The notes beneath the pieces were generated by a model, which was not told the DNA's origin, searched no databases, and saw nothing but the letters and a program-made list of their open reading frames with translations. Shown here piece by piece: positions 1 through 26,933 of a stretch of 64,000 nucleotides of DNA (position 1 is the first letter of the stretch; every line of letters begins with the position of its first letter). This stretch comes from Escherichia coli (lineage in GTDB: Bacteria > Pseudomonadota > Gammaproteobacteria > Enterobacterales > Enterobacteriaceae), in the NCBI RefSeq assembly GCF_024298765.1, contig NZ_CP101210.1; one strand, written 5' to 3'. The position numbers were made by a program, and so were the translations under genes.

Positions 1-10
1 AACGCACGAG

Positions 11-1189: not shown

Positions 1190-1195
1190 TAAAAA

Positions 1196-1215: not shown

Positions 1216-1223
1216 AACTGGTA

Positions 1224-1892: not shown

Positions 1893-2005
1893 GAATAGTT
1901 TCCTGAGATGATTATATTACTTTCTAAGTTATAGCAAAAAGCGCCGCTTCGTGTTGTGGCAAAAAAAGTGTTGGTGAAAATAAATTTTTTAGCCCCTTTT
2001 CAGAC

Positions 2006-2068
2006 GACATAGTCAATGCCGAAAAAGACATAGTCAATGCCGAAAAAGGGGCTGCCGAAAAAGGGGCT
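2006..2068. repeat. Tandem 21-bp direct repeat (gacatagtcaatgccgaaaaa x2) plus partial third unit, nested in inverted repeat agcccctttt/aaaaggggct
   Basis: Read directly in the tehB-ydcL intergenic region. Confidence 0.85.
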
Positions 2069-2230
2069 AAGTCAATCATCAGTAGTTAAATTTCAGTAAG
2101 TTAAGCTGCTAAAAAATTTCGACTACTGTGATTAATTTCACATCCATTCGATAAAAAATATGCTTACCGAAAAGAAGAACAGTAAACCATCTCAGCGTGG
2201 GGAATTTTCACGCGCCTTGTTCCTAGCGGG

Positions 2231-2824
2231 TCATTTTTTACGTGCCAGCATCGTGGCGAAACGCAGTTTAATACGATTACCGTTGGCGTCGGTGCGGTGC
2301 AGCTCGCCGACGTCTTCATTGTATTTCACCATCTCCCAGCCTTCGTAATATCGACGTAATTCCCCCTCTTTGAAGGCAAACGGGAAGCCGACGGTACATG
2401 GATAATCAGCGGTATCCATCGCCGCCACAATCAGGTTGTAACCGCCAGGTTTAGTGCAACGTTGCATATTGGCAATCAGCCCTGGGATGGTTTTAGCCTC
2501 AAGGAACATCAGCACCACAGTCGAAAGAATAAAATCATACTGTCCATCAAATGTGAGGTTATTCAGATCAACGACCCGGGTGTGTAAATTCTCCAGATTT
2601 TCAATGGATTTAATCCGCTCGACGTTGGCGATACTCATGGCATTTTTATCCCATGCGTCAACATCATAACCATTGGCTGCCAGGTAAAGACTGTTACGAC
2701 CATTGCCACAGCCCAGATCCAGCGTTTTACCCGGTTTAACCACTTTCACCGCTTCCAGCACTTCAGAGTGTGTGCGAGTTAATTCATATTTATCAGTAAA
2801 ATAGTTTTCGTCACGAATGATCAT
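2231..2824 (-). CDS. tehB: Tellurite resistance SAM-dependent methyltransferase TehB
   Basis: 197-aa ORF recognised as TehB ([22 protein letters not shown]..., [14 protein letters not shown] motif); overlaps tehA stop by 4 nt. Confidence 0.95.
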
Positions 2825-3813
2825 TCTTTGTCCTCTGCTTTCATTAAAACGGCGCGCTCGGTTCTGATTAACAATTTTCCCTGCATCAGAAGCGCAAAAG
2901 TACGGATGAGCAGTATTGCAATAATAAAATTGGTAAAGATAAACAGCGGCACCGCCAGCGTATGGAAAAATCCATTATCGCTGCCACTCCCCAGATGCAA
3001 ACCGGTGGTTGCCAGTGCAGATACGCCGAACGAGAAACTCCAGAATGAAGCATTAAATGGCTGGGAGAGATACCATGGCATCAGACGTAGCATAAACAGC
3101 AGTTGCAGCAGTCCATAACCGAAAAGCATTTTCGCCAGCGTGTCACCCTCGCCGCCGTTGACGCTCAGCCAGGCACTACAGGCCACCAGCGCAGGAGCGA
3201 GCTGAATGCCGAGTGATGTCCGCAGCGCCGTGGGTAATTCTCCCGAACTGCGCAGACGCTGCAAGATCACAGGTTCAAGGCTTAGCCATGAGAAAACGCC
3301 TGCGCCTAAAAACACCAGACCGGCGTCGGTGTAGCCCAACGCACCACAGGCCATTGCGCTGATAAAGTTGTTGGCAACTGTCGGCAGATACAGTCCAGGC
3401 GTGGTAGCTTCTTCAGGGTGAGATCCGCGCCATAATCCCGCAGTTTGCCAGGCGGCATAAGCCAACTGAACCACGACGCCAAAACTGAACAGGCACACCG
3501 CCAGTGGGCGAAACCACGGAACAAAACCAATCGCCACCAGCATCGTCGTTGCCGGAAACAAACTCACAAAACTGCTCAGCACTGGATGGCGCACTTCCGC
3601 CAGCACGCTATGCGGAAAGCGTATGAGTCGGGTAATAAATGCGCTAGTTAATAATCCCCAGATGATCATCGCCAGAATCACCAGCCCATCCCCTAACCAG
3701 TGGCTGACCTGCCAAACCTGGCTGGCATAGCGCCAGGCAAATCCCATCCCTATCGTCCCCAACACAATACCAAAGTAGCCTGCCGGCAAATTGAGCACTT
3801 TATCGCTCTGCAT
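2821..3813 (-). CDS. tehA: Tellurite resistance / dicarboxylate-transporter family membrane protein TehA
   Basis: ORF 2821..3921; start set at internal Met ([19 protein letters not shown]...) to give the 330-aa TehA. Confidence 0.9.
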
Positions 3814-3936
3814 CTTCTTACTCATTTTGTTTAATTTATAAAGTATATTTGAAATGCATTTTATGGAATTTTCTCGAGCATAGCCAGAGCCGCAGAATTT
3901 GCTACGGTTATAGTAAGTCACCTGTGGGAAAACGCT

Positions 3937-4917
3937 ATGCGCAAATATCGTCTAAGTGAAGAACAGCGAGCCTTTAGTTATCAGGATGATGGCACTAAAA
4001 AAAGTGTGTTATTACGGCAGATTATCGCCATGAGCGATTTTAACGATGTGATAGCAGAAACCGCTGGCGGCTGGATCGATCGCGAAACGGTGTTAGCACA
4101 GGAAGGAAATTGCTGGATTTACGACCAGAATGCTATTGCGTTCGGCGGAACGGTGATATCCGGGAATACGCGTATCACCGGCACCAGCGTGCTGTGGGGA
4201 GAGGTTTACGCAACGGATAATGTCTGGATCGATAATAGTGAAATCAGCCAAGGTGCATATATAAGTGACAGCGTCACCATTCGTGACTCATTAGTTTGTG
4301 GTCAATGTAGAATATTTGGTCACGCCTTAATTGATCAACATTCTATGATCGTCGCCGCACAAGGCTTAACGCCCGACCATCAACTCCTGCTACAAATTTA
4401 TGATCGCGCAAGGGTTAGCGCCTCGCGTATTGTTCACCAGGCACAAATTTATGGCGATGCCGTCGTCCGGTATGCTTTTATTGAACATCGCGCCGAAGTT
4501 TTTGATTTTGCCAGCGTTGAAGGTAATGAAGAGAACAACGTCTGGCTATGCGATTGCGCTAAAGTCTACGGTCACGCGCAGGTGAAAGCTGGCATAGAAG
4601 AAGATGCCATTCCGACGATTCATTACAGTTCGCAGGTGGCGGAATATGCCATTGTGGAAGGTAATTGTGTGTTAAAACATCATGTCTTGATTGGCGGAAA
4701 TGCCGTGGTACGTGGCGGACCGATTCTGCTCGACGAGCACGTTGTAATACAAGGTGAGAGCCGTATTACAGGTGCGGTGATAATTGAAAAACATGTGGAG
4801 TTAACCGACCACGCCGTCGTTGAAGCCTTTGATGGCGACACGGTTCATGTCCGTGGTCCAAAAGTCATTAACGGCGAGGAGCGCATTACGCGAACGCCGC
4901 TGGCAGGGTTATTGTGA
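3937..4917 (+). CDS. ydcK: Uncharacterized protein YdcK (left-handed beta-helix / hexapeptide-repeat like)
   Basis: 326-aa ORF divergent from tehA; repetitive V/I-x-G pattern; synteny. Confidence 0.8.
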
Positions 4918-5448
4918 ATCGATAATACGCGCGTATAAGTTCACATCATCATAGGCATCATTCAGGAACTCAGCCTGTTTCAGACAACCTTCAAGGATAA
5001 AACCATTGCGCAAAGCGACCTGGTTGCTTTGCGCATTGTCCACCCGACATTTGATCACGAAGCGTCTAAGTTCACCAGACTGAGCGTAATGATGAATCAA
5101 TGCCTGCAGCGCCTGAGAAATGATCCCCTGCCCCTGATAAGATTCGTCCAGCCAGTAGCCAATTTCAGCGGTTTTATTCAGTGGTTCAATACGATTAAAC
5201 GAGATAACGCCGATAAGTTCATCTTCTTTGAAAATCATGAACATTTTGGCATAGCCGCGTTGATGCAACATCACATTACCCTGCACCGTTTTTCGCGTGT
5301 CCTCTTCACTTTGAACAAACTGCGGCCAGTTTAGCGACTGCTGTAACCAGGTTTTATTTTTACAGATTAACTGATAAAGAGGTGTGACGTGATTTTCTGC
5401 AACAGCATGTAATTCAAGTGATTCGCTTACTTTTATCGTTTCAGTCAT
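4909..5448 (-). CDS. rimL: Ribosomal-protein-L7/L12-serine N-acetyltransferase RimL (GNAT)
   Basis: ORF 4909..5463; start set at [16 protein letters not shown] (179 aa); GNAT acetyl-CoA motif [10 protein letters not shown]. Confidence 0.9.
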
Positions 5449-5474
5449 CTTATCTCCAGTCAATCCATGCAGTT

Positions 5475-5501
5475 GTTAAAAAAGCCGCCTGGCTGGCGGC
5501 T
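5475..5501 (-). terminator. Rho-independent terminator after ydcH
   Basis: Hairpin agccgcc-tggctg-ggcggct followed on the minus strand by a U6 run. Confidence 0.7.
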
Positions 5502-5510
5502 TAGGAAAGT

Positions 5511-5735
5511 TTACACCTCTTTGACGCTCTCCTGCTGCAGGATTTTGAGCATCTCATCTTTTAACTGTAGCTTTTGTTTTTTCATGCGGACCACTTCCGC
5601 ATTGTACCCTCGACCGTCGGAACCTTCCTTTCTGGCAATTTCATGATCAAGTTTATTGTGTTTATCGAACAAGGACATAAAGCGAGGATTTTCGTTTTTC
5701 AGACGGGATATTAAATCTCGGTATTCTGGAAACAT
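5511..5735 (-). CDS. ydcH: DUF465-family small protein YdcH
   Basis: 74-aa ORF (MFPEYRDLISRLKNENPRF...), synteny between rimL and opgD. Confidence 0.8.
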   Translation of the reverse strand: MFPEYRDLISRLKNENPRFMSLFDKHNKLDHEIARKEGSDGRGYNAEVVRMKKQKLQLKDEMLKILQQESVKEV

Positions 5736-5874
5736 ACGCACTCCCTGTTAGTGGCTGACAAGGTGTATCTGAAATACACACCATCAGATTACTCATTTAA
5801 CTTAGGGAAAAATGCGAGCGGGATCGTGTTTAACCAGACGGCACCTCCCGAAGAAGGTGCCGAAGAAAAAACGA

Positions 5875-7530
5875 CTAACTCATCACGCGGTCGTCAACAT
5901 ACTGACGTTTATCCGGCGCTGGCGGGAAATACTGATAGAGCCATGTTTCACTGATAGCGTCGCCCTGACAACGCAGATACATCCGCATATCGACCGGATC
6001 AGTGGAGTCCGAAGTCGGATACCAGTCAAACTGAATACGATAACCATCAATGGGTTCAATATAGAGAATTTCGATTTGCTTCGCTTCCCCACTGGAAAGC
6101 GTAATCACCGGCTCAATGCCTTTTGGCGCGGCAGCTTTCAGATCACCACCAACGAAATCGACGGCAAAACGACGCGCCCATTTTTCGGGATAGTGTTCAC
6201 CTGGCGCCCAACCTTCCGGGAAACCGCCCATGCCGGTACGCGTCGCCATAACGCGCGCTAATGGGCAATGAACAGGCGGTTGCGCACTCCAGTACAGACG
6301 ATACTGGAATGCAAACTCATCACCCGCTTTCACAGCTTTTTCTGGCTGCCAGAAGCAGACAATGTTATCCAGCGTTTCGCCCGTTGTTGGGATTTCCATC
6401 AGGCCGATGGTGCCCTTACCCCACTTGTTACGCGGCTCCACCCACAGACTTGGGCGTTTGTTATACCAGCCCATAATGTCCTGATAATGGGAGAAATCAC
6501 GATCCAGTTGCAATAAACCAAACCCTTTCGGGTTGTTGTCGGTGTAAGCATTGAACTGCAATTTTTGCGGATTATTCAGCGGACGACAAATCCACTCGCC
6601 ATTGCCCCGCCACATGGACAGACGATCTGAGTCATGGATTTGCGGATGAATGGTGTCGCACATCCGACGTTCATTAGTACCGCAGCTGAACATGCTGGTC
6701 ATCGGCGCAATGCCCAGCTGTTTAATGTCTTTGCGCGCATACAGGTGATTTTCCACATCCATAATCACCTGACTTTTCTCACAATGGATAGTGAACTTAT
6801 AGGCACCAGTAATGCTGGCGCTATCGAGCAACGCATAAACGGTAAAGGTGGTTGCCCCCGGTTTTACCGTATCAAACCAGAAGTCAGTAAAGTCGGGGAA
6901 CTCTTCTTTACTGTCGGTGTAAGTGTCGATCGCCAGGCCGCGGGCCGACAAACCGTATTGATATGTATCATCAACCGCGCGGAAATAACTCGCGCCGAGG
7001 AATGATACGACATCACGGCGCGCCAGTTCGGGGGCTTTAAACACGCGAAAACCGGCAAAACCGAGATCGCTTTGCCCTTCTAATTGTTTGGTATCAACAC
7101 CCGCATCGTTGTATTTGAACAACTCCGGGCGAAAGTGAATTTCACGCGCCAGATGTGTTGCGGGATCAACAGAAAACATACGAACGCGGCGACGGAATCC
7201 CATTCCCATATGGAAGAACTGAGCGTCCAGTTGACGGTTCTCAACGTTATGCCAGAGCGATTTTTCGGCGTCGTATTGAATACTGTTATAAGCCTGCGGC
7301 GTCATTGTCGCCAGAGTGTCAGGTAACGGACGCGGCGCACCACGCCACGCTGTTTGCGCTAAGTCGTGCGCCATTGACTGTAGAATGGAGAAGTCAAAAC
7401 GTTGGGTTTGCCCGTCGGCAATATCAGAATCTGCCGCGAATGCCGCCTGAGAAAAAAGAGAAGCAATGCCGCTGGTACCGCACACGGCGGCCATAGCCAT
7501 TGAACCTTTAATAAATCGTCTACGATCCAT
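5875..7530 (-). CDS. opgD: Glucans biosynthesis protein D (OpgD/MdoD), Tat-exported periplasmic protein
   Basis: 551-aa ORF with twin-arginine signal [32 protein letters not shown]. Confidence 0.95.
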
Positions 7531-7754
7531 ACCTGAAAGTGAGTCCTTCTGGTGTTGTGAATGGTCCCGCGCTGGTCGTTTTCAGCGGCAAGAAAGTGCT
7601 TATTTATGACCGCTCACTCTAGACAATATTTATTAATAATCCAATTGTTGAACTGAGAGAATATGCATAAATCGGCAATTTTTTTATGTCGATGGGATGA
7701 GCCTGATTCGTTTGTAAAATCAGGCAAATTTTTGCAAAGGCGGATGGTCAGAAT

Positions 7755-9098
7755 TTAAAGCAAACCACAGCGACGTTTACTGCGTTCTTCCGCTTCCTGA
7801 TAAAGCTGGAACTCATCCAAAACCGGGCAGCCCAACGCCTGCTCAAATGCTTCGCGACTGGCATTACCGTGACTGCGTGCCTGCGTTTCATTACCCAGAT
7901 TTGACTGGAAGATCCCCGCCGCGCTAACAGGCAAGAAATCTTCATAGGTAATGGGTTGCGCCACTACCCAACCACGTTCAATTAAGGGCTGTGGATCGTC
8001 TCCGGGATGAATCGCCTGACGATGCGTCTCACCTGAAGGCGTCAGACGGTACCGGAACCATGCCAACCCTTGCTGACGCATTAAAAACTCACTGTCAGGA
8101 AAAGTGCGGAAGGTTTCCTGTAAATGCATTTGGTGAGTGAGATTATCCTGCCCGGTTCCAGCGTTCCGCAGTAGATCATCATACAGTTGTCGTCCTTTCG
8201 GCGTTAATGCCACGCCACGTTGCTCTATTTCACCAAAGCGCGCGGTATGCGTGCCCTGTTTCTGCCCTGCAAACAACACCGTCTCTTCCAGTGCTTTAAA
8301 GCTAGTCTGGCGTAGTAAAATCGGTACCTCGCGGCGCGGCGGCCCTTCGATCAGAATTTTGGGTTCAATTCCGCATTCAGGCATCATCGACTGCACCCGG
8401 TCAATATCCAGCGTGCGTGGCGTCAGGTGGTTGATATGGCATCCAGGAAAACAGACCACATCAGCAATCAACCGATGTTCGTTGTGCAAGGCGCGATAGG
8501 TTTCTTCATCTACCGTTGCTGACTGGTGCCAACGAAACGTTTCCAGGGCTTCCTGCACAAACTCCTGTGCCTGTGTTTCGTTAAAACCGCCCCGCTGCTC
8601 ATATTCCTCTAACAGTTGTCGACAACGTGGGGTGAAGATATCGCGCTGACGCAGAATCTCCGCCGCTTTCTGGCGCAAAATTTCGTTCTCGATAAGCTCA
8701 AGGCGGAGTAATGAAGTAAAAACGCGGAAGGGATTACGCGCCAGAGAAGCATCATCAATGGGCCGAAATGCTGTCGAATGTACCGGCACCCCCGCCTGCG
8801 AGAGATCGTAATAGCTCACCGGGTACATCCCCATAATGGCAAACATCCGCCGAAGAGTAGCAAGCTCTTGTGCAGTCCCAACACGAATCGCCCCATGACG
8901 TTCAACATTCAGTCGCGCCAGCTCGTCTGCATTTACCATTTTTTCGTGCAGTTGAGGATTGTTTTCCAGCACAGCCAGATTCACATCAGCTACCAGTTCC
9001 AGCAGCGTACCGTACTGCGGAACTTCTTGCTGGTACATGGCTGACATTGCCTGCGAAAACTGTTCCCGAATCTCATCCGCCGTGATGCTGTTCGCCAT
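7755..9098 (-). CDS. ydcJ: DUF1338-family protein YdcJ
   Basis: 447-aa ORF, synteny between opgD and ydcI. Confidence 0.85.
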   Translation of the reverse strand: MANSITADEIREQFSQAMSAMYQQEVPQYGTLLELVADVNLAVLENNPQLHEKMVNADELARLNVERHGAIRVGTAQELATLRRMFAIMGMYPVSYYDLSQAGVPVHSTAFRPIDDASLARNPFRVFTSLLRLELIENEILRQKAAEILRQRDIFTPRCRQLLEEYEQRGGFNETQAQEFVQEALETFRWHQSATVDEETYRALHNEHRLIADVVCFPGCHINHLTPRTLDIDRVQSMMPECGIEPKILIEGPPRREVPILLRQTSFKALEETVLFAGQKQGTHTARFGEIEQRGVALTPKGRQLYDDLLRNAGTGQDNLTHQMHLQETFRTFPDSEFLMRQQGLAWFRYRLTPSGETHRQAIHPGDDPQPLIERGWVVAQPITYEDFLPVSAAGIFQSNLGNETQARSHGNASREAFEQALGCPVLDEFQLYQEAEERSKRRCGLL

Positions 9099-9314
9099 AA
9101 TGTCTGCCTCCAGTGGTCAGTAATCTGGAGTGTAGGTAACCGCATTCACTCTGGCGGGAAGAATTTGCAAACTGTGATCTCGCCGCGAAAACATCAATAT
9201 TATCCATTTCGCTGTAACATAATTGCTTTAATTGTTAATAATATTTTGCAATCAAGTTATCATAATCAAACAACTTCACTTGTCAGCGACACCGCTTCGT
9301 TTTTAACATCGCTT

Positions 9315-10238
9315 ATGGAAAAAAATAGTCTGTTTAGTCAGCGCATCCGTTTGCGCCACCTTCATACATTCGTAGCTGTCGCACAACAAGGAACTTTGGG
9401 GCGCGCGGCTGAAACCCTTAATTTGAGTCAACCTGCGCTCTCTAAGACATTGAATGAACTGGAGCAGCTGACGGGCGCTCGCTTGTTTGAGCGTGGTCGT
9501 CAGGGGGCGCAACTTACCTTACCCGGCGAACAATTTTTAACGCATGCAGTCAGAGTTCTTGACGCCATCAACACTGCCGGACAGTCGCTTCATCGTAAAG
9601 AAGGTCTTAATAATGATGTCGTCAGGGTTGGTGCACTACCTACTGCGGCACTGGGGATATTACCTTCGGTTATAGGCCAGTTTCATCAGCAACAAAAAGA
9701 AACGACCTTGCAAGTTGCGACAATGAGTAACCCTATGATTCTGGCGGGTTTGAAAACCGGGGAAATCGATATCGGCATTGGTCGGATGTCAGATCCTGAA
9801 CTGATGACCGGACTTAATTACGAACTGCTGTTTCTTGAATCGCTGAAGCTGGTTGTCCGCCCTGATCATCCGCTACTTCAGGAGAACGTAACGCTAAGCC
9901 GGGTGCTGGAATGGCCGGTCGTTGTATCACCAGAAGGCACTGCGCCACGCCAGCATTCAGATGCATTAGTGCAGAGCCAGGGATGTAAAATTCCTTCGGG
10001 TTGTATCGAAACGCTGTCTGCTTCGCTATCTCGTCAACTTACGGTTGAATACGATTACGTGTGGTTTGTCCCTTCTGGCGCTGTAAAAGACGACCTGCGT
10101 CATGCCACGCTGGTGGCCCTGCCTGTTCCGGGTCATGGTGCAGGCGAACCGATTGGAATACTGACCCGCGTAGATGCGACGTTCTCTTCTGGTTGCCAGT
10201 TGATGATTAACGCTATTCGAAAATCAATGCCGTTCTGA
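9315..10238 (+). CDS. ydcI: LysR-family transcriptional regulator YdcI
   Basis: ORF 9165..10238; start set at MEKNSLFSQRIRLRHLHTFVAVAQ (307 aa) with N-terminal LysR HTH. Confidence 0.85.
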   Translation: MEKNSLFSQRIRLRHLHTFVAVAQQGTLGRAAETLNLSQPALSKTLNELEQLTGARLFERGRQGAQLTLPGEQFLTHAVRVLDAINTAGQSLHRKEGLNNDVVRVGALPTAALGILPSVIGQFHQQQKETTLQVATMSNPMILAGLKTGEIDIGIGRMSDPELMTGLNYELLFLESLKLVVRPDHPLLQENVTLSRVLEWPVVVSPEGTAPRQHSDALVQSQGCKIPSGCIETLSASLSRQLTVEYDYVWFVPSGAVKDDLRHATLVALPVPGHGAGEPIGILTRVDATFSSGCQLMINAIRKSMPF

Positions 10239-10245
10239 AAGGTGA

Positions 10246-10263
10246 AGGGATCTGTCGATCCCT
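10246..10263. terminator. Bidirectional hairpin between convergent ydcI and trg (agggatc-tgtc-gatccct)
   Basis: 7-bp perfect stem between the two stop codons. Confidence 0.55.
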
Positions 10264-10275
10264 CCTTTAACATTT

Positions 10276-11916
10276 TCACACTGTAGCGAAACTAACTGGT
10301 TCACCAGCTCCGCGAGGTTCTGCCGACACAGAATGTTTGTTCAGACGGAATACGTCCACCGCCTCAGTTAATCGTGCCGCCTGTTCTTCAAGGGACACTG
10401 CCGCTGCTGAGGCCTCTTCTACCAGAGAAGCATTCTGTTGCGTCACCTTATCCATTTCAGATATCGCCTGGCTAACCTGCGTTATACCCCTACTTTGCTC
10501 ATCCGAGGCGGCGGCAATTTCCTGCATGATATGTGTGACACTCGCGACGGCATCAACAATAGTGCTCATGGTTTTCCCGGCCGTGGCCACCTCATCCGAT
10601 CCCAGGTCAATTAACCTGACTGATTCACTGATCAAGCCTTCAATCTCTTTCGCCGCCTGAGCGCTGCGGCTTGCGAGTGTCCGTACTTCGCTGGCGACAA
10701 CGGCAAATCCACGCCCTTGCTCACCCGCTCGCGCGGCTTCAACGGCAGCATTCAGTGCCAGAATATTCGTCTGGAAAGCAATACTGTTGATGACGGCGGT
10801 GATCTCAGAAATTTTCTTCGAACTCGTGGAGATAGCGCCCATCGTTTTTACTACACCGGAAACCGTCTGCCCGCCATCGCTGGCTTTAATAGAAGCCTCT
10901 TGCGCCAGTTTGCTGGCATGATGCGCGTTATCCGCATTCTGTTTCACCGTCGCAGTGAGTTGCTCCATGCTGGCGGCAGTTTGTTCGATTGCCGCCGCTT
11001 GTTCTTCGGTGCGAGATGAAAGGTCCGCATTGCCAGCGGAAATTTCGCTGGTGCCACGATAAATCTCTTCCGCACCCTGTCGAACAGTCCCTACTGTCAT
11101 CCCCAGTGAATGCTGCATTTGCTGTAAATGACGACTTAAGCGACCGATTTCATTACGACCCGCCGGTTCATCATTCATCGTCAGATCGCCACTGGCGATT
11201 TTTTCAATCCGTTGTGCGGCATGTTGCAGTGGACGAATGACGATCCGACGTAGCACCATAAATGTTATCAGCGTCATGACCAGGGCAAGCACAAACGCGC
11301 CAATCATGAACATCCCACCCAGGCGGGTGCGCTGATGGGCCAGTTCCGCCAGTTGGTTGGCTCTGGTGCTACGTATCTTAACGGCTTTGCTCAAAATATC
11401 GGTATAAGCATTATCCAGCGGTCGGATCTGCTCACTTTCATGATTGATAATCGCTTCAAACATGCCATTTTTGGCATATTTCAACATAGGTTGCATACCC
11501 GTGATATAAGCCTGGAAGCGTTGATTTAATTCAGTGTCGAGGGCTTCATCAGCAGGTGTTTTCACCGACCGATTCTGATAAGCACGATAACCTTGCTGCG
11601 ACTGTTTAATCTCCGATTCGGCTTGCGCAATATTTCGCTTCATTGATTCCATTTCCGCAATACGACTCGCTGCCCCGGCCTGAATCATATTGATCCGGGC
11701 TGAACGCAAAAAATCTGAACTGTTCGCTAACCCGGTCCGAATCTCAATCTCCGCAGTAACATCACGCTGATCGCGATCGGCCTGCCAGAGGAAATAGCCA
11801 GCCAGAGCAGAACTTAATGCGAATAGAACTAAGATACCGCCAAGAATGCAGGCAAATAACGGAACCAGCCTGATGTGATGCAAAAAACCTAATCGCTGTG
11901 AGGGAGTTGTATTCAT
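10276..11916 (-). CDS. trg: Methyl-accepting chemotaxis protein III (ribose/galactose sensor) Trg
   Basis: 546-aa ORF with N-terminal TM, HAMP region and conserved MCP signalling domain. Confidence 0.95.
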
Positions 11917-12194
11917 TACCGTTGTCTCTCGTCCAGGTTTACTCCTGATAGAAAGTCATCGGCACTTGACGGTAATTACTTATGACCAAAAACCTCTTTG
12001 CGTCACATTTTTACAACAATTATTGCAGAGAAAATTAATGCTATTGGAATGAAGAGAGTAACGAATGGCTAAACTGGCTAACCCGAATGACGAAAAATTC
12101 TGGAAAACAGCACGCAATTTCGTAAAGTGATTATTTTCGTCCCTAAGGAAACCTCATAGGATGCCTGCGGGTGCCTGAGACTTTCTGTTTTCAG

Positions 12195-12256
12195 GCTAAC
12201 CGGGAATCAGAAAGACGAAGGCCCCGACCGATATTTCTATCAACCGAGGCCAACGA

Positions 12257-12267
<11 letters not shown>
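12195..12267 (-). ncRNA. sokB: Putative SokB antisense RNA of the hokB/mokB locus (position inferred)
   Basis: Expected antisense RNA over the mok start region; candidate promoter TTGCCG-N18-TAAGAT on the minus strand with start near 12267; 3' end not defined. Confidence 0.3.
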
Positions 12268-12464
<197 letters not shown>

Positions 12465-12470
12465 GGGCAA

Positions 12471-12491
12471 GCGCGGGGATTTTCCCCGCGC
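12471..12491. other. GC-rich perfect palindrome at hokB 3' end (gcgcgggga-ttt-tccccgcgc)
   Basis: 9-bp stem 7 nt after hokB stop; likely 3' stem-loop of hok mRNA. Confidence 0.6.
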
Positions 12492-12535
12492 ATCTGACTA
12501 GCAGATTCATTTTCTCATGGCACCCCTTTTACACT

Positions 12536-12709
12536 TCAGTTAATGCATGTTTTTTTCGATGCACTAATAGAACCATCATTACAAACAAATTTGCCGCCTG
12601 CCGTACAGTGTGAGATCCCCCCTTTCGAACCAGAACAGGGTTTGCGCCCGGCATCGGCATAAAAGGAAACAAGCGTTCCTATAACCAAGATAAGTGCCAG
12701 TTTTTTCAT
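12536..12709 (-). CDS. ydcA: Small secreted cysteine-rich protein YdcA
   Basis: Hand-translated 57-aa [60 protein letters not shown] with signal peptide; SD ggaggt upstream. Confidence 0.8.
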
Positions 12710-12879
12710 ATAACCTCCATGATTTATCGAATCTTATGTTCGATTTTAACGTTATACGCTGGTTTATTTTGATACCGTTGATGAGATCAAAGATCGGGTG
12801 AATTGATTAAAAATAAGCCAGATGGACGTATGGGCAAGGATTATGGTTTTATTTGTCATACAAATAAATATAATAGGCG

Positions 12880-12943
12880 CTTCCGATGTAGACCCGTATT
12901 CTTCGCCTGTACCACGGGTCGGTTTTAGTACAGGCGTTTTCTT
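12880..12943 (+). ncRNA. rydC: RydC small RNA (Hfq-dependent)
   Basis: 64-nt sequence cttccgatgtagacccgtattcttcgcctgtaccacgggtcggttttagtacaggcgttttctt matches RydC as I remember it; convergent with cybB. Confidence 0.8.
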
Positions 12944-12953
12944 TAAATATCCT

Positions 12954-13484
12954 TCAGGAACGTTTACGCGGCATCATGCGTAGAAGTGTGTTGTCCTTCC
13001 AGAAATAGTGGTGTGCCAGTGCAGCCGCAGCGTGCAACCCGATGACAAAATATCCCAGATTCGCCAGCGTTTCATGCCACGACTTTAAGCTATCAACCCG
13101 TTCGAAATTGGCCTCTGATGCATAAGGCATCGTCATACCAAACGCAAACCACGGGTTACCCCGGTTATACATCATCACCAAACCAATCACTGGCAGCGCA
13201 ATAAACAGGAGATAAATCACCAAATGGCCCAAATGCGCCAGTCCCGTCATCATCGGTTTTGGCTTAGGTATAATCGGCGGGGTTGGGTATTTCAGTCTTA
13301 ACAAAAGACGAACCACCATCAGTACGAGAATTGAGATGCCACAGGAAACATGAATCATGTTGATGAGGGGCCGATCGCTACGTGGGAAGAAACCACGAAA
13401 CTCCATTGCGCAATACGCTACGATAACCAGCAAAAAGACCAGCCAGTGAATGCTGATTTGTAACCTTGAGTATTTATTTCCCAT
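12954..13484 (-). CDS. cybB: Cytochrome b561 CybB
   Basis: ORF 12954..13520; start set at MGNKYSRLQISIHWLVFLLV (176 aa); multi-TM haem-binding His pattern. Confidence 0.9.
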   Translation of the reverse strand: MGNKYSRLQISIHWLVFLLVIVAYCAMEFRGFFPRSDRPLINMIHVSCGISILVLMVVRLLLRLKYPTPPIIPKPKPMMTGLAHLGHLVIYLLFIALPVIGLVMMYNRGNPWFAFGMTMPYASEANFERVDSLKSWHETLANLGYFVIGLHAAAALAHHYFWKDNTLLRMMPRKRS

Positions 13485-13672
13485 AACATTTCCTGCTTTA
13501 ACATAATTTGCCGTTAACATAACGGGCTTTTCTTAAAATTTCATTAAATATTGTTCACCCGTTTTCAGTACGTTACGTTTCACTGCAAGAATGTAGATTG
13601 CCCATCCCGCCATCCTGGTCTAAGCCTGGAAAGGATCAATTTTCATCCGAACGTTCCTGACAGGAGAAGACC

Positions 13673-14674
13673 ATGAGTAAAGTTGGTATTAATGGTTTTG
13701 GTCGTATCGGTCGACTGGTGTTGCGTCGATTACTTGAAGTCAAAAGCAACATAGACGTTGTCGCTATTAATGATCTCACTTCCCCAAAAATTCTCGCCTA
13801 CCTGCTGAAACATGATTCAAACTACGGACCGTTCCCCTGGAGCGTTGATTTTACGGAAGATTCACTTATCGTTGATGGAAAAAGTATCGCGGTTTACGCC
13901 GAAAAAGAGGCTAAAAATATTCCATGGAAAGCGAAAGGCGCAGAAATCATTGTCGAATGTACTGGCTTTTATACCTCCGCAGAGAAATCGCAGGCGCACC
14001 TTGATGCTGGTGCGAAGAAGGTGTTGATTTCCGCCCCTGCCGGTGAAATGAAAACTATCGTTTATAACGTCAATGACGACACTCTGGATGGCAACGACAC
14101 CATTGTTTCCGTGGCGTCATGCACCACTAACTGCCTTGCGCCGATGGCCAAAGCCTTGCATGACAGTTTCGGGATAGAAGTCGGCACGATGACGACCATT
14201 CATGCCTATACCGGCACCCAGTCACTGGTGGATGGTCCGCGTGGGAAGGATTTACGAGCTTCACGCGCAGCGGCAGAAAATATCATTCCCCACACTACAG
14301 GTGCGGCAAAAGCCATTGGTCTGGTGATCCCGGAACTGAGCGGCAAACTGAAAGGTCATGCGCAACGCGTGCCGGTGAAAACAGGTTCGGTCACTGAGCT
14401 GGTGTCCATTCTCGCAAAAAAAGTGACTGCCGAAGAGGTGAATAACGCACTTAAACAAGCAACCACCAATAACGAGTCATTTGGTTATACCGATGAAGAA
14501 ATAGTCTCTTCCGATATCATTGGCAGCCATTTCGGGTCGGTGTTTGATGCCACGCAAACGGAAATTACCGCCGTGGGCGATTTACAACTGGTGAAAACGG
14601 TCGCCTGGTACGATAACGAATATGGCTTCGTCACACAACTCATTCGCACCCTCGAAAAATTCGCTAAACTCTGA
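13673..14674 (+). CDS. gapC: Glyceraldehyde-3-phosphate dehydrogenase GapC (intact)
   Basis: 333-aa uninterrupted ORF with GAPDH motifs ([18 protein letters not shown]). Confidence 0.85.
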
Positions 14675-14682
14675 CGCACACA

Positions 14683-14703
14683 GGCGGAGGAAAAACCTCC
14701 GCC
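14683..14703. terminator. Bidirectional terminator between gapC and aldA (ggcggagg-aaaaa-cctccgcc)
   Basis: 8-bp perfect stem between convergent stop codons. Confidence 0.65.
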
Positions 14704-14714
14704 TCTTCCACTCA

Positions 14715-16154
14715 TTAAGACTGTAAATAAACCACCTGGGTCTGCAGATATTCATGCAAGCCATGTTTGCCATCTGCGCCGCCAATACCAGATTTACGCC
14801 ATCCGGCGTGGAATCCTTGCATAGCTTCGAAGTTTTCACGGTTGATGTAAGTTTCACCAAACTTCAGCCCTTTAATGCCTTTCATCGCGACGTTCAGATT
14901 TTGGGTATAGATTGATGAGGTCAGGCCGTAATCACTATCATTCGCCATTGAGATAGCCTCTTCCAGCGTGTCAAATGCGACCACCGGCAGAACCGGGCCA
15001 AAGGTTTCCTCATGCATAATCGACATTTCCTGGCGAACATCCAGCAGCAATGTCGGCGGATAATAATATCCTTTCCCCTCTACCGCTTTGCCACCCAACG
15101 CCACTCTCGCCCCTTCTTCTACTGCGCGCGCCACTTTTTGCTCGACCCTTTCCAGCGCCGCGGCGTTAATCAACGGCCCCATCGCAATGTCGTTGCGTTC
15201 AGCGGGGTTACCAAATTGAACCGCCTGCATCGCTTCACCCAGCCGATTGACAAACTGATCATAAATGCCTTTCTGTACATAAACACGTTCTGCACAGTTA
15301 CACACTTGCCCACTATTAATGACGCGTGAATCAACGATGGCTTTGACTGCCAGTTCAAGATCGGCATCGTCCATTACGATAGCCGGTGCTTTACCCCCCA
15401 ATTCCAGGCACACTTTGGTGATGTTTTTCGCCGCAGTCGCCATAATCTTTTCACCTGCAGAGACGCTGCCTGTCATACTGACCATTGCGACCTTTGGGTT
15501 ACCCGCCAGTTCTTGCCCAACGGTTTCACCACGCCCCAGAACAAGGTTAAACACGCCGCGCGGAAGGCCTATTTCATCGACAATTTTGGCGAATGCAATC
15601 GCATTGTTTGGCGTAAATTCACTGGGTTTAATGACGATGGTATTACCGGTCAAAAGAGCGGGAGCCATTTTGCGGGCAATGAGGAAGAACGGGAAGTTCC
15701 ACGGCAGAATGCCGGTAGTCACGCCAAGCGCACGTTTAAACAGAAGAATATTTTCTCCTGGACGATCGCTTTGAATAATCTCGCCTTCATAACGCCGTGC
15801 CCACTCCGCCATGTAATCGATATAGTCCGCAGTAAAAGCCACTTCGACTTCAGCCAGCTGCTGGATCTTACCCCCTTCTTCAACAATCAGCGTACTGATT
15901 TCACTGGCGCGTTCGCGGATCCCGGCGGAGATTTTGCGCAACCAACTGGCGCGTTCAATAGCAGGCAACGCTTCCCATTCTGGTTGTGCACGTTCTGCTG
16001 CATCGATTGCCTTACGGGCATCCTCGGCCTGACCATCGGGAATGCGGGAAATGACAGCCTCTGTAGCAGGGTTTACCACATCAATCCATGCGTCTCCACG
16101 CCAGGTAACAAACTGTCCATCAATATACATAGGATGTTGAACGGGTACTGACAT
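14715..16154 (-). CDS. aldA: Lactaldehyde dehydrogenase AldA
   Basis: 479-aa ORF recognised as AldA (MSVPVQHPMYIDGQFV...), aldehyde dehydrogenase catalytic Cys motif. Confidence 0.95.
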   Translation of the reverse strand: MSVPVQHPMYIDGQFVTWRGDAWIDVVNPATEAVISRIPDGQAEDARKAIDAAERAQPEWEALPAIERASWLRKISAGIRERASEISTLIVEEGGKIQQLAEVEVAFTADYIDYMAEWARRYEGEIIQSDRPGENILLFKRALGVTTGILPWNFPFFLIARKMAPALLTGNTIVIKPSEFTPNNAIAFAKIVDEIGLPRGVFNLVLGRGETVGQELAGNPKVAMVSMTGSVSAGEKIMATAAKNITKVCLELGGKAPAIVMDDADLELAVKAIVDSRVINSGQVCNCAERVYVQKGIYDQFVNRLGEAMQAVQFGNPAERNDIAMGPLINAAALERVEQKVARAVEEGARVALGGKAVEGKGYYYPPTLLLDVRQEMSIMHEETFGPVLPVVAFDTLEEAISMANDSDYGLTSSIYTQNLNVAMKGIKGLKFGETYINRENFEAMQGFHAGWRKSGIGGADGKHGLHEYLQTQVVYLQS

Positions 16155-16350
16155 GAGCGACTCCTGTGATTTATATGTTTGTTTTTGGTAAATGCATTGT
16201 TAATTAACATCAATCATCATAGAGACGGCATCATGAAAGGACAATTCTGTGAAGGGCTTCATAAAAACAAGTATAAAAGGAATAAGAGGCAGAAATAAAA
16301 GGCAGGAGTTATGCCCGTTTGCAAACAAGTGGTTCACAAACGGGCAATTT

Positions 16351-17151
16351 TTAACGTAACGAGCGACTTTCCATCGCCTCGATGAGCACCGCATCGTGTT
16401 TCAGCGTTTGCCATGCCTGGATGACTTCTGCCGGAAAATCAACGTGAACGATAAAATCTCGCCCGCGTGGACCGTAGCCATCGCTATCATCGCGTAAACG
16501 TGGCAGCTCGCCAGTGAGTAGTGAGAGATAACGCTCAACCGGCCATAATCCTTGCAACGGATTAACAAAGATTACACTGTCTGCGTTATTTCCTAACTGA
16601 GGAACGAATCCGGGATAACTTAACCAGCGTGGTGCATCGGGATTGTCCCCAGTCATACGGCGGAACGTCGCCATCGTGCGCCGCTGCATGGTGGGGTCCT
16701 GAACAACGATAGCCGTATGAACTCGTTCTACGGCCTGATTCAATAGCGCGATGCTAAAGCGTGCGTTTTCACCGCAGTTTGTTGACTGGTCTTCAATCCA
16801 GATTTTTTCATGCGGAATGTGCCAGAACTGATGAGCGATATCCGCCAGGATGGTCGCTTCTGCTCTGCCAGTGGTGCGGATAGTGTTGTAGTGCGGATGC
16901 TGTGCGATGGCGCTATACAAAAAAGTTGTCGAGTGACCGATACCACCACTGATCAGTAAAGGAATTTGCTGATCGCGGGCAATCTTACATGCCGCGTCGA
17001 TAGTCGGCATAACCGCATTGCCTGCAAGGATCACGCAATCGGCCTGATACGGCATCTCACCGGAGAAATCATCCTGCGCCAGCCACTGACCGATAACATT
17101 TATGGCATCTATGGTTGCCGGCGAAAGCGTCGGAAACGGGGTAATGTTCAT
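16351..17151 (-). CDS. ydcF: DUF218-family protein YdcF
   Basis: 266-aa ORF, synteny between hrpA and aldA. Confidence 0.85.
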
Positions 17152-17365
17152 GGTTCCTCCTTATCGTTCCCTTAAGAATACTGCGTGAGATAATAGTGAG
17201 AAGCGGAGCACTCTGAAAGGAGGAAGTCCTATTTCCTTAACCGCCACTCCGCAAGCCTGACATATCTTTTAAGGAAATGCTGTAGATAAACATTATTCAT
17301 CTTGCAGCTGAGAATTGTATTTTTCTGAATTCCTGAATTTTTGCCCTTACCGTTTTAGAATTAAT

Positions 17366-17395
17366 AAAAAACCCGGCGCTAAATGCTTACCGGGT
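17366..17395 (-). terminator. Rho-independent terminator after hrpA
   Basis: Hairpin acccgg...ccgggt followed on the minus strand by a U-run. Confidence 0.65.
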
Positions 17396-17422
17396 TTTAG
17401 ATTTATCAGGCAAATAGCAGTG

Positions 17423-20400
17423 TTAACCGCTAATCTGCTCCATCGCCTGCAAAATACGCTTATCTGAAATCGGATAAGGCGTACCAAGTTGTTGAGCGAA
17501 GTAACTAACGCGCAACTCTTCTATCATCCAACGGATCTCTTTCACGTCTTCATCCTCACGACGTGCGGGCGGCAGTTTGTTGATCCATTGCTGCCACGCC
17601 TGCTGGACATTTTCGACTTTCAGCATCTGAGCACGGTCGCGATGTGGGTCAACCGCCAGTTTTTCCAGCCGTTTTTCAATCGCCTGCAAATAACGCAGCG
17701 TGTCGCCCAACCGTTTGAAGCCGTTACCAGTCACAAAACCGCGATACACCAGCCCGCCCATCTGCGCTTTGATGTCAGAAAGCCCCAGCGCCATAGTCAT
17801 ATCCACCCGCCCTTTCAGGCGTTTGTTGATATTGAACACTGCCGTAAGGATTTGCTCGACCTGCTTCGCAATATCCACCACCGTATCGTTCAGTTCAGCG
17901 CGGACTTTCTCATGCAGCGCAGCAAAGCCTTCTTCCGTCCAGACCGGGCCACCATTGGCGTCGATCAGTTGATCCACCCCGCAGGAGATACAGTCGTCGA
18001 TCAGCTCCAGCACTTTGCCATACGGGTTAAAGTACAGCCCCAGCTTGGCTTTGTTCGGTAACTTTTCATGCAAATACTTGATCGGCGATGGAATATTCAG
18101 TAGCAGTAGACGGCGAAGACCGTTCCACATTGCCTGCTTTTGTTCCAGCGGATTATCAAACAGTTTGATCGCCACGCTGTCGCGTTCATCCACTAGCGCT
18201 GGCCACGCCTTCACTTTGTAGTTGCCACGCTTCTGTTCGTAGCTTTCCGGCAGTTGCCCAAAGCTCCAGATATGTAAGCCGCTCTGCTCGATACCGTCAT
18301 CCGCCACCGCAGACAGCGTTTCCTGCACTTTGCCTTTCAGCGCATCTTTCAGATCTTGTAGAGAGCGCCCTTCTTTTAGCTTCTTGTTTTTGTCATCCAC
18401 CACGCGGAAGGTGATTTTCAGGTGATCGGGCACCTGATCCCAGTGCCAGTCTTCGCGGTCAACGGTAACACCGGTCATCCGCCGTAACTCGCGCTCAAGG
18501 CTGTCGAGCAACGGTAACTCCAGCGGTGTGACGCGGCCTAAAAACGCTTCGGCGTAGTTTGGTGCAGGCACAAAATTACGGCGTACCGGTTTCGGCAACG
18601 ATTTAATCAGTGCGATGATCAGTTCACGACGCAGGCCGGGGATTTGCCATTCAAACCCGCTCTCTTCTACCTGATTAAGCAGCGGCAGCGGAATATGCAC
18701 GGTCACACCGTCCGCGTCCGCGCCTGGCTCAAACTGATAGCTCAAACGCAGCTTGAGATTGCCCTGATGCCAGAAGTTCGGGTAATCCAGCTTGCTGATT
18801 TTTTCCGCCCCTTCTTTGATCAACATGCTCTTTTCAAAGTTGAGCAAATCAGGCGTTTCGCGGCTGACTTTTTTCCACCAGCTGTCGAAGTGACGAGCGG
18901 AGATTACATCGTGGCTGATGCGCTGGTCGTAGAACTCAAACAGCGTTTCGTCATCAACCAGAATATCGCGGCGACGTGATTTGTGTTCCAGCTCTTCCAC
19001 TTCGGCCCGCAGTTTCAGGTTTTCACGGAAGAATGCGTGACGCGTCTGCCAGTCACCTTCCACCAGAGCGTGGCGAATAAAGAGTTCACGACATAACGCC
19101 GGATCGATCTGGCTGTAGTTGACCTTACGCGCAGCAACAATCGGCAAACCATAAACAGTGACTTTTTCCGTTGCCATCACCGCGCCCTGCGCCCGTTCCC
19201 AGTGCGGTTCGCTGTAGGTGCGTTTAATCAAATGCTGAGCAACGGGTTCTACCCATTCAGGGTCGATACGCGCAGCAATGCGCCCCCACAGGCGGCTGGT
19301 TTCTACCAGTTCCGCCACCATTACCCATTTCGGCGGCTTTTTGAATAAACCAGAACCGGGAAAGATGGAAAAACGCGCGTTACGTGCGCCGGTATATTCT
19401 TGTTTATCGGCATCTTTCATGCCGATATGGGAAAGCAAACCGGTCAGTAAGGCGATGTGAATTTCGCGATACTCCGCCGGTTCGCTGTTAACCGGAATGC
19501 CAAGTTCTTTCACCACCTGGCGCAACTGGGTGTAGATATCCTGCCATTCGCGCACGCGCAGATAGTTGAGATAATCGGTACGACACAGGCGACGGAAGGC
19601 GTTAGAAGAAAGCGCCTTTTGCTGCTCGCCGAGATAATTCCACAGATTTACAAACGCGAGGAAGTCGGATTCTTTGTCGTGGAAGCGGCGATGTTTTTCG
19701 TCCGATGCCTGCTGTTTGTCCATCGGTCGTTCGCGCGGATCCTGGATGGAGAGCGCGGACGTGATAATCATCGCCTCACGCACGCAGCCATGTTTTTGCG
19801 CTTCCAGCACCATACGCGCCAGACGTGGGTCGACAGGCAACTGCGAGAGCTGGCGACCGAGCGGCGTCAGTTTATAGGCGCTGGCCTGTTCATCAGTGGT
19901 GATCGCGCCCAGTTCTTCGAGCAGACGCACGCCATCCTGGATATTGCGTTTATCCGGTGCTTCGACAAATGGGAACGCGGCGATATCGCCCAACCCCAGC
20001 GCGGTCATCTGTAAAATAACCGAGGCCAGGTTGGTACGCAGAATCTCCGGATCGGTAAATTCCGGGCGCGAAAGGAAATCGTCTTCGGAATAGAGACGAA
20101 TACAGATCCCTTCGGACACACGACCACAGCGGCCTTTACGCTGGTTGGCAGACGCCTGCGAAATGGGCTCAATCGGCAAACGCTGCACTTTGGTGCGATA
20201 GCTGTAGCGGCTGATACGCGCCGTACCTGGGTCGATAACGTATTTAATCCCCGGTACGGTCAGCGACGTTTCCGCGACGTTGGTCGCCAGCACAATGCGC
20301 CGTCCGCTGTGCGACTGGAACACGCGGTTCTGTTCGCTGTTCGAAAGCCGCGCATAAAGCGGCAAGATTTCGGTATGCCGCAGATTTAGCTTGTTCAGCG

Positions 20401-21325
20401 CATCTGCGGTATCGCGAATTTCCCGCTCACCGCTCATAAAGATCAGAATGTCGCCGGAGCTTTCCTGACTCAGTTCGTCTACGGCGTCAAAAATCGCCTG
20501 CAGCTGATCGCGCTCGGTGTCATCGGCTTCTTCAACAATCGGTCGATAGCGCACTTCCACCGGATAGGTCCGACCGGAGACTTCGATAATCGGCGCATTA
20601 TTAAAGTGGCGCGAAAAGCGTTCCGGGTCGATAGTCGCGGAAGTGATAATGATTTTTAGGTCAGGACGCCGCGGTAGCAACTCTTTCAAATAGCCGAGCA
20701 GAAAATCGATATTCAGGCTACGTTCGTGCGCTTCGTCAATAATGATAGTGTCGTACTGCATCAGCAGGCGGTCTTGCTGGATCTCCGCCAGCAGGATACC
20801 GTCGGTCATCAGCTTGACCATCGTGTTATCACTAACGTGATCACTGAAACGCACTTTGTAACCGATGCAACCGCCCGGCTCCGTTTTCAGCTCTTCCGCA
20901 ATACGGTTCGCCACCGTTCGTGCCGCCAGGCGACGCGGTTGGGTATGACCGATCAGCCCTTTAATCCCGCGCCCCAGTTCCATACAGATTTTCGGTAGCT
21001 GAGTCGTTTTACCGGAACCGGTTTCCCCGGCGACGATCACCACCTGGTGATCACGAATCGCTTCGAGTATGTCCTGCTTTTTCTGACTAACCGGCAAATT
21101 GTCCGGATAAGTGATTTCCGGTCGTGCCGCTTCACGCAGCAGGACTTTCCCTGCCGCATGGTCAATCTCTTTCGCCATCTCCTGGAAAATGGCCTGTTGT
21201 GCATCAGGATTTTTAACCTTCTTCACGCCGTGCAGACGGCGAGAAAAACGCAGTCTGTCGCGCAGCATCAGCGAATCCAGCCGCTGCTGCAAGGCCGTAA
21301 AGGTCAATTTTTGTTGTTCTGTCAT
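17423..21325 (-). CDS. hrpA: ATP-dependent RNA helicase HrpA (DEAH-box)
   Basis: 1300-aa ORF with Walker A GETGSGKTTQ and DEAH motif. Confidence 0.95.
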   Translation of the reverse strand: MTEQQKLTFTALQQRLDSLMLRDRLRFSRRLHGVKKVKNPDAQQAIFQEMAKEIDHAAGKVLLREAARPEITYPDNLPVSQKKQDILEAIRDHQVVIVAGETGSGKTTQLPKICMELGRGIKGLIGHTQPRRLAARTVANRIAEELKTEPGGCIGYKVRFSDHVSDNTMVKLMTDGILLAEIQQDRLLMQYDTIIIDEAHERSLNIDFLLGYLKELLPRRPDLKIIITSATIDPERFSRHFNNAPIIEVSGRTYPVEVRYRPIVEEADDTERDQLQAIFDAVDELSQESSGDILIFMSGEREIRDTADALNKLNLRHTEILPLYARLSNSEQNRVFQSHSGRRIVLATNVAETSLTVPGIKYVIDPGTARISRYSYRTKVQRLPIEPISQASANQRKGRCGRVSEGICIRLYSEDDFLSRPEFTDPEILRTNLASVILQMTALGLGDIAAFPFVEAPDKRNIQDGVRLLEELGAITTDEQASAYKLTPLGRQLSQLPVDPRLARMVLEAQKHGCVREAMIITSALSIQDPRERPMDKQQASDEKHRRFHDKESDFLAFVNLWNYLGEQQKALSSNAFRRLCRTDYLNYLRVREWQDIYTQLRQVVKELGIPVNSEPAEYREIHIALLTGLLSHIGMKDADKQEYTGARNARFSIFPGSGLFKKPPKWVMVAELVETSRLWGRIAARIDPEWVEPVAQHLIKRTYSEPHWERAQGAVMATEKVTVYGLPIVAARKVNYSQIDPALCRELFIRHALVEGDWQTRHAFFRENLKLRAEVEELEHKSRRRDILVDDETLFEFYDQRISHDVISARHFDSWWKKVSRETPDLLNFEKSMLIKEGAEKISKLDYPNFWHQGNLKLRLSYQFEPGADADGVTVHIPLPLLNQVEESGFEWQIPGLRRELIIALIKSLPKPVRRNFVPAPNYAEAFLGRVTPLELPLLDSLERELRRMTGVTVDREDWHWDQVPDHLKITFRVVDDKNKKLKEGRSLQDLKDALKGKVQETLSAVADDGIEQSGLHIWSFGQLPESYEQKRGNYKVKAWPALVDERDSVAIKLFDNPLEQKQAMWNGLRRLLLLNIPSPIKYLHEKLPNKAKLGLYFNPYGKVLELIDDCISCGVDQLIDANGGPVWTEEGFAALHEKVRAELNDTVVDIAKQVEQILTAVFNINKRLKGRVDMTMALGLSDIKAQMGGLVYRGFVTGNGFKRLGDTLRYLQAIEKRLEKLAVDPHRDRAQMLKVENVQQAWQQWINKLPPARREDEDVKEIRWMIEELRVSYFAQQLGTPYPISDKRILQAMEQISG

Positions 21326-21516
21326 AACGTTAGTGGGCAGTAGGCTGCCTGATTAATTTTCTTTTAAATGATAGATATAGAGTACCACATCGCGGCTTTC
21401 TATGCGTTGTTCAATAAATTCGAACATAGGCTTCGATTTATTGCGCTATCTCTGTGGCAGGATTGTGAATAAAGTGTCAACAAGCAACGGGGCATCGCCC
21501 ATTCAAACATCTATAA

Positions 21517-22131
<615 letters not shown>

Positions 22132-22145
22132 CCGGACACGGTCTT

Positions 22146-22175
22146 GATGTGGACTGTAGATATTCAGTCCACATC
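22146..22175. other. Perfect 10-bp inverted repeat between convergent azoR and ynbD (gatgtggact/agtccacatc)
   Basis: Read directly; no U-run, so function as terminator is uncertain. Confidence 0.5.
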
Positions 22176-22184
22176 TCAATCCAC

Positions 22185-25248
<3,064 letters not shown>

Positions 25249-25263
25249 TCTCTCTATTTTCCT

Positions 25264-26160
25264 TCAGTAACAGCAATAGCGAATAAAATAAAAAAATACC
25301 GGAGCGGTGAAAATTAATGAGTCAATCCTGTCAAGGAGTCCGCCATGTCCTGGTAATAGTTTTCCACTATCTTTAACACCAACATCTCGTTTGATGGCTG
25401 ACATCACTACATCGCCGCAAAAACCACTAATACCAATTAACAAACCCGCTAATAATGCCTGTAATGTATCTAGCGGTGTCAGTAACGGTCCAATAATCAG
25501 TGACACAATCATGGTAGTGATTACGCCCCCCACCAGACCTTCCAGCGTTTTTCCCGGGCTGACTTTGGGGACCACTTTTCTTCTGCCGCAGGATTTCCCC
25601 CATAAATACTGTGCAATATCGTTTGACTCGGTTAATGCCAAAAGAAATAACACCAGTAACGCCTCGCCCTGGATATTTGTGGTTGGCAACATTAATAACC
25701 AGGCGGTATGACTCAAGGCGAAAACGGTCATTATCCAGCCACAAAAAATGGCGCTCACGGTATGCAGAAAACCGGAGGGTTCACCCACAAAAACTCGCCA
25801 GGTGGCTAATATCAGAAACCCAAACAAAGGTATAAATAACAGAAACAGCTCAAAGCAATTTAAACCGATAAGCAAATAGTTAAGAGGAATAACCCAATAT
25901 AACCAACGCGGAAAATGTACGGATATAAGCGTACAATATTCTTTCAATGCCAGAAAACTTATCAGCGCAAAAAACGTCAACGTCACCCAGCGTGGACCTG
26001 AAATCACCAGTGAAAAACAAATGACGATGCCCCACCAGGTACGAATACGTAATGTAACTTCATCCCCTTTTCTCTCCGGTAACCGCCATACCAGAAAACG
26101 GTTTATCAGCATTGCTAAAATTAACAACGCGAAAAGTGTTGCCAGAGATTTTTCCAGCAT
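25264..26160 (-). CDS. ynbB: Phosphatidate cytidylyltransferase-like membrane protein YnbB
   Basis: 298-aa polytopic ORF, synteny. Confidence 0.85.
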   Translation of the reverse strand: MLEKSLATLFALLILAMLINRFLVWRLPERKGDEVTLRIRTWWGIVICFSLVISGPRWVTLTFFALISFLALKEYCTLISVHFPRWLYWVIPLNYLLIGLNCFELFLLFIPLFGFLILATWRVFVGEPSGFLHTVSAIFCGWIMTVFALSHTAWLLMLPTTNIQGEALLVLFLLALTESNDIAQYLWGKSCGRRKVVPKVSPGKTLEGLVGGVITTMIVSLIIGPLLTPLDTLQALLAGLLIGISGFCGDVVMSAIKRDVGVKDSGKLLPGHGGLLDRIDSLIFTAPVFFYFIRYCCY

Positions 26161-26765: not shown

Positions 26766-26933
26766 TATCAATCCTTGATAATTCTGTTTGCGCTATGGTG
26801 CATCAATTGCCCTGGCAGAGATATCGCAACACGCCGCTTCATTAAAAATTCAGAATATATCAAGGTATTGGGGCTCACTGTCAGGAATGATTATCCCCAA
26901 TTAATCAAATAGTTAAAAATATTACGCTGTTAT

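Follow-up and report, generated by a model that had tools for sequence, protein, structure and literature searches.

Intact gapC in an Escherichia coli genome: an allele probably encoding a second glyceraldehyde-3-phosphate dehydrogenase, and its relation to the K-12 pseudogene

In Escherichia coli K-12 the gapC locus holds a pseudogene, and the finding of an uninterrupted reading frame at the same place in another genome raises the question of whether that strain possesses a second, working glyceraldehyde-3-phosphate dehydrogenase (GAPDH) or a gene that has simply not yet acquired its lesion. The frame considered here lies within a 64,000-nucleotide stretch of E. coli DNA (hereafter the window), and the explanation that we regard as very probable is that the window carries an intact allele encoding a second, expressed and condition-specific GAPDH, and that the K-12 pseudogene derives from such an intact form, codon 39 having first mutated to a stop and a homopolymer having slipped thereafter.

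The gapC reading frame and its disruption in K-12

From its sequence, the product of the frame is assigned as a type I phosphorylating, NAD-dependent GAPDH, and the interval between cybB and aldA as the gapC locus (Table 1). The first-pass annotation had described an uninterrupted gene of 333 codons, and this description holds, with correct coordinates and length, as neither the open reading frame (ORF) scan nor re-inspection of the sequence found a stop or a frameshift within the coding region. The other ORFs within these coordinates are short (65-92 amino acids each) and either out-of-frame or antisense, and in genomes with the identical sequence RefSeq annotates the gene as intact (WP_000048661.1).

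The canonical GAPDH motifs attributed to the frame in the same annotation are all present, namely GFGRIGR at residues 8-14 (including R11), D34 and SCTTNC at residues 149-154 with C150, followed in the C-terminal part by H177, T180, T182, R232 and WYDNE at residue 312. Of these, C150, H177, T180, T182 and R232 correspond to residues found to be essential or phosphate-binding in the work on the PDB 7C5F series (PMC8615399). Furthermore, GapC matches the NCBIfam GAPDH-I equivalog TIGR01534 over the whole profile (1-330 of 330) with 448.4 bits, where the curated cutoff is 367.2, and it contains both Pfam domains, the NAD-binding Rossmann domain Gp_dh_N (PF00044; residues 3-102, 123 bits) and the catalytic domain Gp_dh_C (PF02800; residues 155-313, 196 bits).

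Table 1. Positions of gapC, of sites within and around it, and of the adjoining genes in the window.
Feature	Position	Strand	Remarks
cybB (cytochrome b561 / superoxide oxidase)	12954..13484	-	upstream, divergent from gapC; annotation of identical genomes
cybB-gapC divergent intergenic region	13485..13672	+	188 bp; 181/188 identical to K-12; presumed gapC promoter region
Shine-Dalgarno sequence AGGAG of gapC	13662..13666	+	6 nt 5' of the ATG; read from the sequence; kept in K-12
gapC coding sequence	13673..14674	+	333 codons plus TGA; ATG start; type I NAD-dependent glyceraldehyde-3-phosphate dehydrogenase (assigned)
First base of codon 39	13787..13787	+	AAA (Lys), TAA in K-12; pairwise and multiple alignments
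Catalytic Cys150 codon (TGC)	14120..14122	+	inside SCTTNC; residue motif check
A7 homopolymer (GCA AAA AAA)	14416..14422	+	codons 248-250; site of the K-12 A7 to A6 frameshift
GC-rich hairpin	14682..14704	.	stem of 9 bp and loop AAAAA; separates gapC from the convergent aldA
aldA (aldehyde dehydrogenase A)	14715..16154	-	downstream, convergent with gapC; ORF list and annotation of identical genomes

The order cybB-gapC-aldA is the same in K-12 and in every sampled strain, and the wider neighborhood comprises hokB/sokB, RydC and trg upstream and ydcF and hrpA downstream. The cybB ORF runs mechanically to an ATG at 13520 (188 amino acids) as against the RefSeq start at 13484 (176 amino acids), and the longer form would reduce the spacer between cybB and gapC. 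Directly past the 3' end of cybB lie, as in K-12, the hokB/sokB type I toxin-antitoxin locus, with its sok RNA at 12169..12320, and the small RNA RydC (12880..12943, + strand). On the other side of gapC, the hairpin that separates it from aldA has a predicted RNA folding energy of -18.2 kcal/mol (z = -4.3 relative to shuffles) and is kept in K-12 with one extra loop base; it has no T-run and was not called by the terminator scan, and it is likely to be a transcript-end structure shared by the two genes.

The K-12 counterpart is annotated in MG1655 as the pseudogene b4493 (formerly gapC_1/gapC_2, b1417/b1416), and in BW25113 it carries the RefSeq flag 'frameshifted; internal stop'. Alignment of the window with K-12 gapC (97.5% identity over 1002 nt, with 24 substitutions and one 1-base deletion) locates two lesions in the latter, a change of codon 39 from AAA to TAA and the loss of one base in the A7 homopolymer of codons 248-250, which is thereby shortened to A6, and so bears out the earlier statement that gapC is a pseudogene in K-12. 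The K-12 gene also carries an R18G substitution, and none of the three changes is found in the window, whereas the locus itself, its orientation between cybB and aldA, the upstream region and the downstream hairpin are shared.

Codons 248-250, GGA AAA AAA in the majority of strains, read GCA AAA AAA in the window, and the A7 tract is present in all 16 of the sampled 1002-bp alleles as well as in the window, with A6 found only in K-12 BW25113. The allele of strain PK8241 has both the K-12 stop and R18G but retains A7; the nonsense mutation therefore preceded the slippage frameshift, and the PK8241 allele looks like an intermediate stage of pseudogenization.

Intact and disrupted alleles across E. 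coli

Of 5426 complete E. coli genomes, 5409 contain gapC at a coverage of at least 80%. Alleles at codon 39 were counted with 55-mers centered on this codon, for which the 28-base seed of megablast ensures that only genomes with the same central base are matched, and the window allele (AAA) was thus recorded in 3881 genomes and the K-12 allele (TAA) in 1155. A further 368 genomes match exactly an O157-type AAA haplotype, also an intact allele, which the window 55-mer misses because flanking SNPs break all of its 28-mers (leaving about 380 genomes unaccounted for). The three haplotypes together account for 5404 of the 5417 matched genomes; a sense codon at position 39 is found in approximately 78% of complete genomes (ca. 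4,250/5,426), and the K-12 stop in approximately 21%.

The second K-12 lesion, in the form of the exact frameshift haplotype, was counted in 1046 genomes, a figure that refers to the band of at least 99% identity only, since the 28-mer seeds of the frameshift 55-mer survive in A7 genomes owing to the homopolymer and its total of 2613 matched genomes is readable in that band alone. In a sample spread over the ranking of matches, 7 of 39 full-length matches are one base short, like K-12, and 15 of the 16 retrieved copies of 1002 bp carry an intact-protein annotation, the remaining copy having an internal stop. Judged by these genome sequences, an intact gapC is the majority and normal state of E. 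coli and is not peculiar to the window strain. River water, swine, duck, chicken, cattle and humans have also yielded isolates with the K-12 allele, and because this allele is not confined to laboratory strains it represents a natural lineage polymorphism.

Five gapC copies in records labelled as plasmids were considered as possible evidence of a mobile gene and rejected, as the records measure either 4.8-4.9 Mb, being chromosomes under the wrong label, or 250-385 kb, with no evidence of mobility. Two Pantoea megaplasmids carry a gap gene that is 74% identical to gapC.

At least 12 independent complete genomes agree with the part of the window that surrounds gapC (1..25000) at essentially 100% identity, and 71 genomes match it at 99% or more; among them are the O78:H4 APEC strain E12049, several further isolates from birds, and isolates from pigs, river water, wastewater and humans. 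Over positions 1..42488 the window is collinear with E12049 at 99.993% identity; beyond this point E12049 has sitABCD and a prophage after uspF, and the window carries other ORFs. According to the annotation of the 99.993%-identical genome, the paa (phenylacetate)/tynA/fea region is largely absent at 30140..31071; what remains there is paaY, a 3' piece of paaX (30712..30864) and, at 30865..31071, a truncated helix-turn-helix gene. A DUF2773 bactofilin gene (26934..28274) is annotated in a near-identical genome as a pseudogene (frameshifted; internal stop), and an IS200C transposase gene (28408..28866, - strand) adjoins a match to the Hfq-binding RNA STnc490 (28876..28999, - strand, 146 bits). 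The window also contains the RNAs MicC (40210..40330), FnrS (45141..45258) and McaS (53191..53286).

Selection, expression and possible function

Among 16 intact alleles (the window and 15 others) the mean dS is 0.099 and the mean dN 0.0038 (dN/dS 0.039), and third codon positions hold 67 of the 79 segregating sites. Variation in the protein is limited to 11 amino-acid positions, and the catalytic residues are not among them. This pattern of substitution indicates that gapC is under strong purifying selection. The window gene is by strong inference functional, and the earlier suggestion that this strain may carry a second functional GAPDH appears well supported, both by the dN/dS ratio of about 0.04 and by the activity of an enzyme, EcGAPDH1, that is identical at 332 of 333 residues.

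As in the standard GAPDH mechanism, Cys150 would attack glyceraldehyde-3-phosphate (G3P), His177 would assist hydride transfer to NAD+, and inorganic phosphate would free 1,3-bisphosphoglycerate from the thioacyl intermediate. In the window strain the gene would be expressed, probably from a sigma-S- or carbon-limitation-responsive promoter in the spacer between cybB and gapC, and its product may serve as a second, condition-specific GAPDH that the cell would use in stationary phase, for gluconeogenesis or while living outside its host.

The window allele is itself distinctive at codon 248, which is GCA (Ala) as compared with GGA (Gly) in all 17 other sampled alleles, making G248A private among the 18 compared, and it has in addition a set of private synonymous changes. 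Residue 248 is a variable surface residue, and because the equivalent in GapA is Glu the position evidently tolerates variation. A more far-reaching account, to which as a whole we would attach only slight credence, is that GapC is a non-redundant isozyme, induced by sigma-S or carbon starvation, used outside the host or gluconeogenically and kept by most E. coli through strong purifying selection, that its loss in the sublineage containing K-12 (ca. 21%, including wild isolates) is an ancestral natural polymorphism rather than a consequence of laboratory domestication, and that the G248A allele of the window lineage, which resembles O78:H4 APEC, could differ functionally.

It is improbable that the ORF, while intact, is silent, or that it represents a cryptic gene that has recently begun to decay, makes no physiological contribution and has yet to suffer its lesion in the window lineage. 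Such a reading would accommodate the dispensability of gapC in at least ca. 21% of complete genomes (those with the K-12 stop) as well as the outcome of a sigma-70 and terminator consensus scan of 13400..14800, which found no convincing gapC promoter and only a single sigma-70-like site (13478..13507, at the cybB start), against 2.1 expected by chance from shuffles. However, the low dN/dS over phylogenetically spread alleles argues against a silent and decaying gene and cannot be reconciled with neutral drift, the locus is kept in nearly all complete genomes (the 5409 counted above), and a good Shine-Dalgarno sequence precedes the start codon. Moreover, sigma-S RNA polymerase occupies the promoter region, and transcription takes place there, even in K-12: a ChIP-seq peak of this polymerase lies in the K-12 gapC-cybB spacer (PMC4447067), gapC transcripts are rpoS-dependent and drop upon rpoS inactivation (PMC2759082), and gapC_1 is tabulated among the genes changed in carbon-limited growth (PMC4512719).

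Still less credible is that GapC is an enzyme of GAPDH fold with a different main substrate or role, such as an Epd/GapB-like erythrose-4-phosphate dehydrogenase (E4PD) or an ArsJ-partnered GAPDH of arsenate resistance. GapC does show weak similarity to the corresponding models, but it remains far below the E4PD cutoffs (281 bits versus 539 for NF010058; 277 versus 530.6 for TIGR01532) and that of the ArsJ-associated GAPDH NF033735 (307.9 bits versus 450), and passes the GAPDH-I equivalog instead. Furthermore, its neighbors are cybB and aldA, with neither arsJ nor pdx genes adjoining, and the near-identical EcGAPDH1 turns over G3P with NAD+ (PMC8615399); on scores and neighboring genes, both assignments were rejected. 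Finally, the possibility that misassembly or misread bases in the A7 tract or codon 39 make the gene look intact may be dismissed, even though some sequencing technologies are error-prone at homopolymer runs, because the near-perfect identity of the surrounding 25,000 nucleotides to at least 12 independent genomes speaks against an accident, the same gapC sequence recurs in dozens of independently assembled complete genomes, and A6 is confined to K-12 BW25113 among the alleles sampled.

Comparison with previously described GAPDH enzymes

The intact gene, its enzyme and the contrast with K-12 (the last from the 1990s) are already known. As cited in PMC2949598, Espinosa-Urgel and Kolter (1998; pmid 9622357) reported an uninterrupted gapC in environmental isolates, with expression in fresh water, and a truncated one in laboratory strains; their work on the gene is also cited by PMC1796617. 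The contrast between intact and truncated gapC was already reported by Hidalgo (1996; pmid 9019141). The gene has moreover been used as a species marker for E. coli (PMC10614358, citing Hidalgo et al., 1996 and UniProt P58072), the cited UniProt entry being the GapC of O157:H7 and thus the orthologue of the window protein. The importance of the present observation beyond correct annotation is small: K-12 is atypical at this locus, and metabolic models or gene-essentiality inferences that are based on K-12 and treat gapA as the sole GAPDH gene may not transfer to the roughly four-fifths of E. coli genomes in which a second active GAPDH would be encoded.

GapC is only distantly related to the housekeeping glycolytic GAPDH of E. 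coli, GapA (b1779). The two proteins share the fold, the family and the SCTTNC motif, but GapC is only 46% identical to K-12 GapA (154/333), and it is therefore a distant paralogue and not a gapA duplicate. GapA is the 'eukaryote-like' enzyme of the pair, and GapC is of the typical bacterial type. In a PDB sequence search with GapC, the best matches after EcGAPDH1 score 482-409 bits, and no entry resembling K-12 GapA is among the best 60 matches listed.

The closest characterized relative of the window protein is EcGAPDH1 (PDB 7C5F/7C5G/7C5I/7C5M/7C5O, of the series 7C5F-7C5R), the primary characterization of which is attributed in PMC8615399 to Zhang et al. (2020, Acta Cryst F 76:406; PMC7470045). 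The name gapC is not used in the EcGAPDH1 structural paper (PMC8615399). The purified enzyme catalyzes the NAD+-dependent oxidation of G3P with a Km for G3P of 0.73 mM, the published assays having been carried out under non-physiological conditions (pH 10, 50 °C), and its activity is abolished by C150A and decreased about 10^4-fold by C150S and H177A; crystal structures of the tetramer, with NAD, G3P, phosphate and the thioacyl intermediate, are available (PMC8615399). EcGAPDH1 and the window GapC agree in length, in C150 and H177, in the NAD-binding residues and in the phosphate sites, and the one difference between the two proteins is residue 248, which is Gly in EcGAPDH1 and Ala in the window.
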